Under the pieces are notes generated by a model that worked only from the letters and a program-made list of their open reading frames with translations, was not told the DNA's origin and made no database searches. A stretch of DNA of 64,000 bases, taken from the NCBI GenBank assembly GCA_965240465.1, contig OZ251219.1:640001-704000 (forward strand), read 5' to 3'. The stretch's first letter is position 1. Each line of letters begins with the position of its first letter. The position numbers and the translations under genes were made by a program. Shown one piece after another: positions 5,587 to 12,551 of this stretch. The DNA is from a bacterium (GTDB lineage: Bacteria > SAR324 > JACQKK01).

Positions 5587-6867
5587 TTAGTGGGTGAAGA
5601 GGCGAACCCCAATCAGGGACATGCTAATACCATGTTCATTACAGGCAGAAATGACCTCTTCATCCTTAAGAGCTCCCCCACACTGAGCAATGTGAGCTAC
5701 CGCAAAGCGAGCTGCTTGATCAACATTATCTCTAAAAGGCAAAAAGGCATCAGAAGCCATACAAAGATGCTCCCAAGTGCTCATCCAATCGGTGTACTCC
5801 TGAGGAGGAAATTTTTTGGGAGGAACAGTGAAAAGGCTCTCCCAGACAGGTCTTTGAATCGGAGTAAGGCGATCATCCAGCCAATCCACAATGGCATTGA
5901 TTTTTTGCTGGCGGGGAACTTGGGGCTGAAAAGAAAGAGCAACCGCCAAGGGATGCTGGCGTATTCTCCACAGCTGGGCTTTCCTCCCTGCTAGAATGAT
6001 GGCATCCACCCGACTTTGCTGACCTGCTCCTACTCCGACTACCTGCCCCTTCCAACTGAAGCATATTGAGTTTGATTGGGTGTACTTGGTGGTAATCAAC
6101 CCCAGACAGAGGTCCCTTATAGCTTGAGGAGAATGCTCTTGACGGGTGACCGTTTTTAATTCCTCAGCCCTTAGAAGAAACTCATTACGCTGCTGACGGA
6201 GGATAACTCCAAATATCTCTCGACTCTCATCGGATGGCGGTTGCCAATCTGGGTTAGCTCGCAGGATTATAAAGCGTCCTTTTTTCTTGGCACGTAAAAT
6301 TTTCAGGGCTTGGGGATGATAATCAGGGGCGATGATACCATCAGAGAATTCATTTTTTAAGAGCTGGGCTAGGGTTTCATCCACGGTATCGCTGACCGCA
6401 GCTAAATCGCCGAAGGAGCTCAAGGGATCGGCACTACGAGCACGCAAATAGGCATTGGCTATCGGGGAAAGCCCCGCCGCGTTTATCTGGCAATAAGCCC
6501 CTATTCCAGCCGATAATTCTCCGCTCAGGGCTGCTCCTGCAGGGCTGAGATGCTTAAAGCTAGCCGCAACGGGAGGACCTAATGCTGACTGAGCTTCACG
6601 GACTAACTGCCAACCCAGCAGGGCATCCATCACATTGATGTACCCAGGCTCCCCAGCCAGCACCTCAAAGGGAGCACCTGCCCTGGAAAAGCACAATTCA
6701 GCATCCTGATGAGGATTACAGCCATACTTTAATTTCTTTACCAGTCCCTGGTCTCGGATGGCAGAGTTGACGGATGATTTTAATTTCAAGGGTGTTATGC
6801 TATATTCCAGAGCGAGTAGTTTTGGTTTCCTTCGTCTTGCAGTCTTATCTTGCGGTTTATGGTGCAA
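5587..6867 (-). CDS. purH: AICAR formyltransferase (PurH transformylase domain only, no IMP cyclohydrolase domain)
   Basis: LKYGCNPHQ, SFKHLSPAGAA, SSFGD, KYTQSNS, GAGQQSR, ASDAFLPFRDN, RLFTH; true start uncertain. Confidence 0.85.
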   Translation of the reverse strand: MHHKPQDKTARRRKPKLLALEYSITPLKLKSSVNSAIRDQGLVKKLKYGCNPHQDAELCFSRAGAPFEVLAGEPGYINVMDALLGWQLVREAQSALGPPVAASFKHLSPAGAALSGELSAGIGAYCQINAAGLSPIANAYLRARSADPLSSFGDLAAVSDTVDETLAQLLKNEFSDGIIAPDYHPQALKILRAKKKGRFIILRANPDWQPPSDESREIFGVILRQQRNEFLLRAEELKTVTRQEHSPQAIRDLCLGLITTKYTQSNSICFSWKGQVVGVGAGQQSRVDAIILAGRKAQLWRIRQHPLAVALSFQPQVPRQQKINAIVDWLDDRLTPIQRPVWESLFTVPPKKFPPQEYTDWMSTWEHLCMASDAFLPFRDNVDQAARFAVAHIAQCGGALKDEEVISACNEHGISMSLIGVRLFTH

Positions 6868-6961
6868 TCTTATCTTGCGGTAGGTAAAATCTCATTTTTA
6901 ACACTAACAGCTTGAAGGTGAGAATGTTGTTTAGCGTGATAAAATATTTGGATAAAAGAAC

Positions 6962-7964
6962 ATGATTAAGATGGTTTCTCATAAGTCAGTCCAGCCTTTC
7001 AGCTCTGTTTGGCTTATCAATTCTGTTTGGCTTATCAATTTAGCCAAGGGCGGGATGTTTTTATGCTTAGGGTTGCTGATGGTGCCTCAGCTACGAGCAT
7101 CCCAAACGGCTACAGGAGATTCAGACTGCGTGGTGGAATCCAATGCTGCTTGCGTGAATTGGAGCACTGGACAGGTTTATATTTGATGAAAAAGGAAGAA
7201 TTAAAAAACAAATTAAATCTTAGGATACCAAAATCGTTGGTTACCGATCTGCACCAAGTCATCAAGCCATGGCTAGCGGAATAGGATTACCAGCCAGCTG
7301 GGCGGATACCGATGCCAAAAAGAAACTTAGTGCTACCCGAGCTGCCAAGCTCAGTGCTGCCCAAGCCCTATTAGAGGTACTCCAAGGCATTAACCTGAAT
7401 TCTACTGATGAATTGAATACTCGCTTGGAAAAATCGGGTTCAGTCAATAGCCGTTTGAGGGGACGTTTAAGAGATCTTGAACCAGTCAGGGGACCAGAGT
7501 ATCTAAAAGATGGTAGCGTGCGAGTTCGTTTGGCTACTAAGGTGCATGGAATTTTGCCTCGCAAATGGTTGACTACAGAAGCTACTCAAGCTAGCAGTTC
7601 TAGAGTTCTACCTACCTATAGTGGTTTAATAGTCAACGCTCAGGGATTAAGGGCCGCTCCAGCCCTTTCTCCGCGGTTGCTAGGAGCAGACGGGCAGCTG
7701 GTTTATACGGCGGGATATGTGGATCGCCGATATATTATTTCTCAGGGAGCGGTGGGTTATCTAAAATCCCTTGAAGCTGCTAAGAAACACCCTCGGGTAG
7801 GTAATCGTCCCTTGATCATCAAGCCTCAGGCGGTCAGCGGAGCTCGCCGTACTGATTTCGTGCTATCAGCAGGAGATGCCGAGTTGTTACGTCGCCTGCA
7901 TCGCCGTCAGGATTTTTTAAGTCAGAGTAGGGTAATCATCGTGCTGGGTGAGGGTAAAAAATAG
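6962..7964 (+). pseudogene. LPP20-like secreted protein gene split by a 91-nt insertion
   Basis: ORF 6962-7186 ends ..CVNWSTGQVY(I*) and ORF 7269-7964 begins (M)ASGIGLP. Removing 7181-7271 gives in-frame NWSTGQVYASGIGLP. C-terminal YSGLIVNAQGL..PALSPRL..HPRVGNRPLII..VIIVL is typical of this family. Confidence 0.65.
7181..7271 (+). other. 91-nt insertion supplying a stop codon, the start of a 32-codon mini-ORF (7186-7284) and a restart ATG
   Basis: Frame restored on removal; TGATG stop/start overlap at 7184-7188; TTGATGA/TCATCAA inverted repeat near the ends. Confidence 0.6.
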
Positions 7965-8040
7965 CTGCAGTAGCTACAAAGTATCAAGGATTTAGTTTTG
8001 TCTGAGTTTCATCCAAATTTTATTTCAGTTTCAGATTAGT

Positions 8041-9321
8041 TTGAGGATCATTTTTTTGGGAGTTATTTCCATGTTCTCGTTATTTTCAATTTCAGTTTTA
8101 TTCTTATTTTCATTGCCATTAGGTTTAGCTCGGCGGGTTTTTCGGGTTGATTGTCTAGGGGGCATGGTTGTGATGTTATCAGCGGTGGTGTTGGTAGTTG
8201 GGTGTTCCTCCAATTCTAGGCAGGCAAGCGGACGTTTGGACACTCCCGAGCATCATGTACTGCGGGGAAATGACGCCATAGCGGTCGGCAATTTTGAGCG
8301 TGCCGAGCGAGAATTTGAGCTATCCTTAGGACTTAAGGAAGATTATGCTCCTGCCTTAGCGGGTTTGGCAGTGGTGAAAGCTCAAGTTGGCACGAAACCA
8401 TTGCTGAGCAAACGCCAGCGAGAGCGTTATTTTGAGCAATCTAAGGACTACTTGAAGAAGGCTTTTGATAAGGCTAGGGGGCCGGAGAATCTGGAGGTTT
8501 ATCTAGCTGCTATTCAGGTATCACGGATCAATAAGGAGAAAAGATGGATTAAGAATGCGGAATCTCAATATTTCAAGGCACTCAAGTTAAGCGGTGATAA
8601 GAATGAAGCTCGTCCGCATTTGTATATGGCTAGGGTTTGGCGGGATGCCTTTCAATTACCCAAAGCCGAAGAGCTTTATCGCCGAGTGTTGGGGCAAGAT
8701 AGTCCTTTGAACGAGGTAGCAGATGCAGAACTAGCGGTGGTGCAAAAGATTCGCCGAGCTGCCCCTGGGAGTCGCTATGGGAAGCTGATCGCCTTTGATG
8801 ATAGAATTACTCGGGCTGATATTGCGGCTTTGTTTATTTCTGAGTTGCGACTGGAACGCATCTATAGAAGAGGAGCTAAAGCGGCTGAGTTCAAGCCTTC
8901 CACTTCTTCTGCTGGAATTTATTCGGTGCCTAAGGATGTGCTTGAGCATCCCTTGCGTGGCGACATTGAAGAGGTCATCAGGTTGGGTGTTAGGGGGCTG
9001 GAGGTTTCTCCGCGGGGGCGTTTCTTGCCCGATGAGGTAATTAACAGAGCGGAATTTGCTTTGATGGTGGAGGATATTCTCGTCAAGGTTACTGGTGAGT
9101 ACGATCTTAGTACTAGATTTGTGGGGCAGAAATCTCCTTTTGCGGATGTTAAATCTGATTTACCTTATTTTAATGCGGTGCAGACGGTGACTTCGCGTTC
9201 TTTGATGGAGCCTAAGGACAAGATCAATGGGATATTTGCTCCCTTGGATAGGGTAATCCCAGTGGATGCCTTGATTGTGCTCAGACTATTGAAAAATGAG
9301 CTGCGTTCTTATGTTCGCTAG
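8041..9321 (+). CDS. TPR and S-layer-homology (SLH-like) domain lipoprotein
   Basis: Lipobox-like VVGC; TPR-like helices; ITRADIAALF, F.PDEVINRAEFA, SPFADV SLH-like motifs; start may be 8071 or 8164. Confidence 0.75.
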   Translation: MRIIFLGVISMFSLFSISVLFLFSLPLGLARRVFRVDCLGGMVVMLSAVVLVVGCSSNSRQASGRLDTPEHHVLRGNDAIAVGNFERAEREFELSLGLKEDYAPALAGLAVVKAQVGTKPLLSKRQRERYFEQSKDYLKKAFDKARGPENLEVYLAAIQVSRINKEKRWIKNAESQYFKALKLSGDKNEARPHLYMARVWRDAFQLPKAEELYRRVLGQDSPLNEVADAELAVVQKIRRAAPGSRYGKLIAFDDRITRADIAALFISELRLERIYRRGAKAAEFKPSTSSAGIYSVPKDVLEHPLRGDIEEVIRLGVRGLEVSPRGRFLPDEVINRAEFALMVEDILVKVTGEYDLSTRFVGQKSPFADVKSDLPYFNAVQTVTSRSLMEPKDKINGIFAPLDRVIPVDALIVLRLLKNELRSYVR

Positions 9322-12463: not shown

Positions 12464-12551
12464 CGGAGAGAGAGGGATTCGAACCCTCGGTGCGCTTTTG
12501 ACACACACACGCTTTCCAGGCGTGCACCTTCAGCCACTCGGTCACCTCTCC
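12464..12551 (-). tRNA. tRNA-Ser(GGA), long variable arm, CCA not encoded
   Basis: GGAGAGGTGACCGAGTGGCTGAAGGTGCACGCCTGGAAAGCGTG...GAGGGTTCGAATCCCTCTCTCTCCG; starts 8 nt after the stop of the upstream ORF. Confidence 0.96.

Follow-up and report, generated by a model that had tools for sequence, protein, structure and literature searches.

The window, the whole 64,000-nt stretch of DNA that was analysed, contains an LPP20/FlgP-like gene that is interrupted by a 91-nt insert and is read as three ORFs on the plus strand. The features of the locus are the following.

5587-6867, minus strand: ORF with an AICARFT/IMPCHase domain, the upstream neighbour, on the opposite strand
6962-7186, plus strand: ORF1, 74 aa
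6962-7171, plus strand: native 5' part of the gene, with the start region, the signal peptide, a conserved Cys pair and ...CVNWSTG, which opens the LPP20/FlgP-like domain
7172-7262, plus strand: 91-nt insert, its placement ambiguous by 2 nt (up to 7174-7264)
7184-7186, plus strand: TGA stop supplied by the insert, which closes ORF1 after three foreign residues (VYI)
7186-7284, plus strand: mini-ORF, 32 aa, its ATG overlapping the TGA of ORF1
7263-7964, plus strand: native 3' part of the gene, in which ORF3 opens at a native internal Met codon
7269-7964, plus strand: ORF3, 231 aa
8041-9321: gene of a TPR/SLH-like protein, the downstream neighbour

The three ORFs and the peptide of the mini-ORF are as the initial annotation had given them, and the TGATG overlap (7184-7188) and the pair TTGATGA/TCATCAA (7183-7189/7259-7265) are also present. 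The insert shifts the reading frame and its TGA comes 13 nt into it. ORF1 consists only of the signal peptide and about 25 mature residues, and ORF3 has lost the first strand of the protein together with the signal peptide and the Cys pair. Upstream of the ATG at 7269 there is no purine-rich (Shine-Dalgarno-like) run, and no promoter-like site was found within the insert. The first 26 to 27 codons of the mini-ORF are insert, and its 3' end runs out of frame in native sequence; we read the mini-ORF as a by-product of the insertion, an accidental reading of the insert that has no relatives. Neither ORF1 nor the mini-ORF nor ORF3 matched a family of Pfam or NCBIfam at an E-value of 0.1 or below.

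A further, out-of-frame ORF crosses the insert on the plus strand (7009-7284), and public protein sets list it as P0001 (73 aa), a spurious call that owes its existence to the insertion that splits the gene. The upstream neighbour (5587-6867, minus strand) encodes 426 aa, and its only profile match is AICARFT_IMPCHas, from position 75 on (E-value of 2.9e-59); its counterpart in a genome of the same genus (G001; 1.7 Mb, one contig) has 440 aa. It looks like a stand-alone or shortened PurH-like gene.

A search with ORF3 gave a match at an E-value of 0.001 or below in 32 of 41 genomes, the genome of the window (G000) included, and the 14 loci returned for genomes other than G000 were taken as the ortholog set. 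All 14 have a single stop-free frame through the site and none has the gap. In each of them a signal peptide is followed by the motif C-x(7)-C-[VI]-[DN]-W-x-x-G and then by the part homologous to ORF3. The ortholog in G001 is a 294-aa ORF that is 67% identical to ORF3 over the shared part and has the same neighbours on both sides; ORF1 aligns to its N-terminal 61 residues and ORF3 aligns to it from the Met of ORF3 onward. The start of the gene reads MIKMVSH... in the window and MMNKMRS... in G001. The alignment with orthologs, which had been suggested as a check, thus bears out the claim that a single gene has been split.

The name given to that gene, LPP20-like, is weakly supported by family profiles. 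ORF3 itself has no Pfam match at an E-value of 0.1 or below, yet 12 of the 14 orthologs match PF02169 when E-values of up to 1 are admitted (best, 1.2e-05); the full G001 protein matched no Pfam family at the same threshold. A profile built from the 14 orthologs found FlgP and lipoprotein chains (2.2e-09 to 1.4e-05) and, at profile positions 174-288, Tp0624 (5jir_B; 3.8e-10). In a Foldseek search with the structure model of the G001 ortholog (pLDDT 72.7), the best match was again Tp0624 (5jir_A; 6.5e-11 over 256 columns), and Lpp20 HP1456 was also found (5ok8_A; E-value of 0.031, prob 0.96, TMt 0.47). The model would place the insert site at the start of a predicted strand formed by residues 62-69. 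The only named homologue is a hypothetical protein of Chitinispirillum alkaliphilum (33% identity). The signal sequence of a lipoprotein has a lipobox Cys at the cleavage site. By eye, no lipobox was evident in the N-termini of the orthologs, which show an Ala-X-Ala/Gln-like site and the first conserved Cys 5 to 10 residues later. The protein is secreted and has two domains, the first LPP20/FlgP-like and the second like the middle of Treponema pallidum Tp0624, and for the first domain the label LPP20-like is acceptable.

Does the gene exist without the insert? Contigs of four public runs were placed on positions 6700-8100 (1401 nt), and three of the runs gave coverage there: X1 and X2, which were made from one sample, and X3, which belongs to a different study and is about 96% alike. 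In the contigs of all three, position 7171 is joined straight to 7263, skipping the 91 nt, with a depth at the joint of 77.7 in X1, 75.4 in X2 and 2 in X3. Over the rest of the 1401 nt X1 and X2 have no other letter, and the same holds for 6902-7171 in their main contigs. Two letters, CA, fit on either side of the insert, so that 7172-7262, 7173-7263 and 7174-7264 are equivalent placements. A protein record leads to the same joint: P0003 (272 aa) is encoded on an ENA contig of 11211 nt and shares a 90% cluster with ORF3. At the site its sequence is NWSTGQAMASGIG, and when 6962-7171 and 7263-7964 are read through as one frame (303 aa), P0003 agrees letter for letter with the C-terminal 272 residues.

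Several details of the initial annotation change with this joint. That a 91-nt insert is present and that its removal restores one frame stands, and the limits are 7172-7262, neither 7181-7271 nor 7178-7268; deleting either of these two segments also restores the frame, and neither deletion gives the native junction. The restored peptide is not the predicted ...QVYASG..., since P0003 has NWSTGQAMASGIG instead. From the joint and the identity of P0003 with the read-through it also follows that the ATG at 7269 was not brought in by the insert, as had been supposed: it is a native Met codon, and the Met is present in both P0003 and G001.

The search for reads lacking the insert, another check that had been proposed, is answered by the contigs of X1, X2 and X3, all of which skip 7172-7262. 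No RNA run was listed among those containing the sequence, and run X5 gave no contig that could be placed. Neighbouring contigs of X1 and X2 have a similar depth of 66 to 90 on both strands and in the spacers, and the longest records of the two runs measure 275523 and 138118 nt, which may stem from other organisms. The records of X1 and X2 do not state the run type; from the even depth and the long records we infer that they are DNA runs, and X3 is DNA by the guess of the tool. The assembly junctions 7171|7172 and 7262|7263 are in no contig of the runs placed, which is the sign of a chimeric assembly that the initial annotation had named, and among these data the interrupted form is seen in the assembly record only. 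Contigs show presence and not absence, as rare variants get dropped. The unbroken gene is also part of the population and, in the runs placed, its main form.

The signal-peptide region of ORF1 carries an 18-nt tandem duplication (6994-7029; SVWLIN twice, copies 78% alike). The main contigs of X1 and X2 share it (0 other letters).

The insert differs from its surroundings in composition. Its GC content is 0.308 vs 0.47 to 0.49 in the two halves of the gene, A makes up 42% of it, and a GC content this low occurs in only 3% of the 91-nt windows of the genome. By DNA and protein search it is single-copy in G000. Among 40 relatives, DNA searches gave chance-level short matches only (at most 36 nt, E-values of at least 0.0016), with none in G001, and a protein search of G001 with the mini-ORF gave nothing. 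An exact 35-mer of the insert had 0 matches in genome_contigs, viral_contigs and metagenome_contigs, so that the proposed search of the genome and of viromes for the 91-mer turned up neither a second copy in G000 nor a viral one. At the protein level, tblastn against plasmids and phages at an E-value of up to 10 gave no match to the insert, and no candidate among proteins of 22 to 70 aa shared three words with a 40-aa stretch. A phmmer search of 1.84 billion representatives with the mini-ORF returned P0001, the overlapping ORF of the window itself, as its sole match. The likeness of the mini-ORF to a ribbon-helix-helix start, which had been pointed out, was not borne out by Pfam, NCBIfam or PHROGs (0 matches in each), by an atlas search (best score of 0.78, the chance level) or by RHH_1 (PF01402), which had 0 matches over the six frames of G000.

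Outside the assembly, the 91-mer has one other place. Low-depth contigs of X1 and X2 depart from the window at two segments that flank the gene.

6932-6970, no strand assigned: gene start and just upstream, replaced by about 1.76 kb in X1 record 3
7964-8051, no strand assigned: variable downstream spacer, different in low-depth contigs of X1 and X2

X1 record 3 (1844 nt, depth of 8.67) contains, on the plus strand and in this order, 6902-6931, 1663 nt that could not be placed, 7171-7265, four letters and 6971-7022. Its copy of 7171-7265 has one change, C>T at 7229, and the 91-mer forms the right end of the about 1.76 kb of extra DNA. X2 record 8 (392 nt, depth of 5) shows the same departure after 6931. 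Together the two records point to a minor form of the locus in which about 1.76 kb replaces 6932-6970. For this context of the donor we have one low-depth contig of X1 and, from X2, a left junction that agrees with it; contigs built from de Bruijn graphs may be chimeras. In the extra DNA, the opening 30 letters occur neither in G000 nor, by exact match, in genome_contigs, viral_contigs or metagenome_contigs. In G001 only 124 nt separate the two divergent genes, for which reason we regard the 1.76 kb as an addition and not as an ancestral remnant. On the other side of the gene, X1 has a joint from 7963 to 8052 at a depth of 5.34, and X2 record 10 (1181 nt, depth of 11.3) has a loose end before 8052. 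These contigs point to structural heterogeneity of the population round the gene, which concerns about 1.76 kb on its upstream side and at least 1.1 kb on the other.

The low-depth contigs of X1 and X2 have another, longer and AT-rich sequence in place of 7964-8051, and X3 has small insertions at 7977-7980.

We consider it moderately probable that the interruption is a very recent, non-programmed 91-nt insertion, copied from nearby variant DNA by template switching, and that the result is a null allele. The template of the 91 nt would have been variant DNA that sits some 200 nt from the site on a homologous molecule, and the likely route is microhomology-mediated template switching or filler synthesis in replication or break repair. 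The donor match is 95 nt long (7171-7265) vs a net insertion of 91 nt, with 4 nt shared with the native flanks. This 4-nt overrun, together with the lack of a clear target duplication or terminal repeat, is why we infer a template switch; an overlap of 4 nt in total over the two junctions would arise by chance in a few per cent of cases, according to our estimate. The frameshift and the TGA of the insert would make this haplotype null for the gene. ORF3, which opens at the native internal Met, has neither a ribosome-binding site nor an export signal. On this reading the insert is neither removed nor bypassed.

Microhomology-mediated templated insertion and template switching are known as FoSTeS/MMBIR and as filler DNA in alternative end joining. 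Like these, the event seems to be a single one in which a short piece was copied from a nearby template, with overlaps of a few nt at both junctions and without a clear target duplication or terminal repeats. A nearby donor and the overlaps are both present, the donor being known from one low-depth contig. Unlike the known cases, the template lies outside this genome record, in a low-depth variant of the same locus only, the locus points to no bacterial enzyme, and the event is deduced from sequence. Papers on templated insertions and microhomology include PMC5120786 and bioRxiv 10.1101/2022.03.14.484287. Of the origins listed in the initial annotation, captured DNA, its first option, comes closest to the evidence.

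The insertion could also be the footprint of an exchange between co-resident molecules, in which a low-depth replicon of the same sample, with the about 1.76 kb of foreign DNA at the gene start, templated a microhomology-mediated copy into the main chromosome, although we think this unlikely. The replicon could be a minor haplotype of the symbiont, or the locus could have a copy in a different genome, for example that of the host; such a copy was considered because of the 5-11x depth and the AT-rich flanks. If true, inter-molecule template switching would have been caught in the act of making a pseudogene in a reduced, IS-poor genome.

Is there a cell that carries the interrupted allele? An artifact of assembly or polishing, in which a source population mixed from the uninterrupted form and the variant with about 1.76 kb of extra DNA led to 91 nt of the variant being misplaced in the gene, is a possible explanation that we hold to be clearly less probable than a recent templated insertion, and under it no cell would have the allele. 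In favor of it, X1, X2 and X3 have no contig with either assembly junction though the runs are otherwise identical, and the best run holds 0.84 of the sampled words, as expected from losing the words of the insert and its junctions. The same sample moreover has the 91-mer at this locus, differently arranged, and proteins of the interrupted form come only from the 1599138-nt record itself. On the other side, the source reads of the assembly may be outside the runs examined, and contigs cannot show absence. Clean junctions with an overlap of 1 to 3 nt would also be unlike routine assembler error, and we know of no routine assembler error that shifts 91 nt about 200 nt downstream with clean junctions.

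Could the insert be an element that moves by itself? We regard as improbable a tiny non-autonomous mobile element of 89 to 91 nt, perhaps with a CA duplication, that hopped locally. The same 95 nt (7171-7265) do occur in two contexts within 300 nt, differing by the one C>T at 7229, and CA bounds the segment in both. The 7-bp inverted repeat that had been noticed in the insert is present, and a repeat of this length near the ends is somewhat unusual (380 of 20000 shuffles); any 7-bp inverted repeat occurred in 1262 of 5000 shuffles. As evidence for an element the repeat is weak: its left arm lies 10 to 12 nt inside the left end and its right arm overruns into native sequence (7263-7265), so that the true ends have no terminal inverted repeat. 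The only repeat at the insert junctions is CA, with no clear target duplication. The segment is also single-copy in the 1.6-Mb genome, was not found in the 40 relatives nor by exact 35-mer in the three collections, and is continuous with 1663 further nt in the variant, for which one larger piece is the simpler account. Profiles of DDE_Tnp_1, rve and the TnpB zinc-ribbon matched control genomes and had no match in G000. MITEs and other small elements derived from IS resemble the insert in being small and AT-rich, in having an inverted repeat near the ends and in the occurrence of the same sequence at two sites. The insert, by contrast, is present once per genome and has neither terminal repeats at its true ends nor a clear target duplication, and G000 gave no match to the three transposase families searched. 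The suggestion of a tiny mobile element is accordingly weak.

G000 is a closed contig of 1.6 Mb with 83.6% marker completeness and without matches to DDE_Tnp_1, rve, the TnpB zinc-ribbon or RHH_1. It looks like a reduced, IS-poor genome.

A programmed feature, be it a ribosome bypass in the style of T4 gene 60, an excision at the RNA level or a coupled three-ORF operon with a working protein, is highly improbable. The arrangement has features that invite such a reading: the stop comes directly after a candidate take-off codon, the TGA overlaps an ATG, and in the minimum-energy fold the insert can form a loop closed by the 7-bp repeat. The proposed landing from Ile ATT on ATC at 7233 is right in that this ATC is in frame with ORF3, and at the true edges of the gap the codons are unmatched (GGA at 7169-7171 vs CAT at 7260-7262), leaving a bypass without support. 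The fold of 7160-7290 is no better than that of shuffled sequences (z of -0.26; 80 of 200 shuffles fold at least as well). An Rfam search of the whole window at the gathering score found only a tRNA at 12464-12551, and hence no self-splicing or other intron family, and a permissive scan of 6900-7500 gave three chance matches with E-values of at least 3.3. The gap is missing from all 14 orthologs. The unbroken allele has been assembled, in contigs of X1, X2 and X3 as well as on the ENA contig, and therefore neither the RNA-level removal nor the ribosome bypass that had been proposed is needed. The flanks are letter-identical in both forms, so that the event is too young for a device to have evolved or for a coupled three-ORF unit, and ORF3 has neither a Shine-Dalgarno-like run nor an export signal.

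In phage T4 gene 60, ribosomes bypass a 50-nt coding gap. The locus in the window is like gene 60 in having a non-coding gap in an ORF and a stop right after a possible take-off codon, and unlike it in that take-off and landing codons at the true edges do not match, that a significant hairpin and conservation are both lacking, and that the gap is missing from the DNA of most of the population. That the family consists of two genes with a natural spacer can be dismissed, as all 14 orthologs are single ORFs and P0003 is the single-ORF form of the very same gene.

What is left is an ordinary event, either a recent 91-nt insertion that breaks the gene or an error of one assembly, with no special decoding device. 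Reduced bacterial genomes undergo gene decay and acquire pseudogenes via small indels. The locus shares with such decay a small, closed and IS-poor genome (1.6 Mb), a non-essential envelope gene and a frameshifting indel. It departs from it in that the allele is not fixed, the intact form dominating the runs seen, and in that the inserted DNA has an identifiable source. An annotation of the locus should hence speak of one LPP20/FlgP-like gene with an interrupted allele or pseudogene, or else of an assembly error; three separate genes or a site of recoding would be wrong labels. Provided that the allele is real, it is a dated, source-identified example of how a small insertion originates in a small, transposase-poor genome.

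The whole gene is flanked by a 21-nt inverted repeat (6937-6957/8007-8027; 81% complementary), both arms of which sit in the segments that differ in the low-depth contigs. As a recombination site the repeat was rejected: in G001 no such repeat flanks the gene, and imperfect ones just as large are scattered there at random places. A simple inversion between the flanking repeats does not fit the loose ends of the contigs either, and we read the inverted repeat as chance. A 19-nt direct repeat (6838-6856/6863-6881; 95% alike, 25 nt apart) lies in the spacer of the divergent genes and reaches into the AICARFT-like ORF at its 5' end, where the start codon is TTG. At its start, the gene of the TPR/SLH-like protein carries a 24-nt tandem repeat (8065-8112; 75% alike; FSLFSISVLFLFS...).
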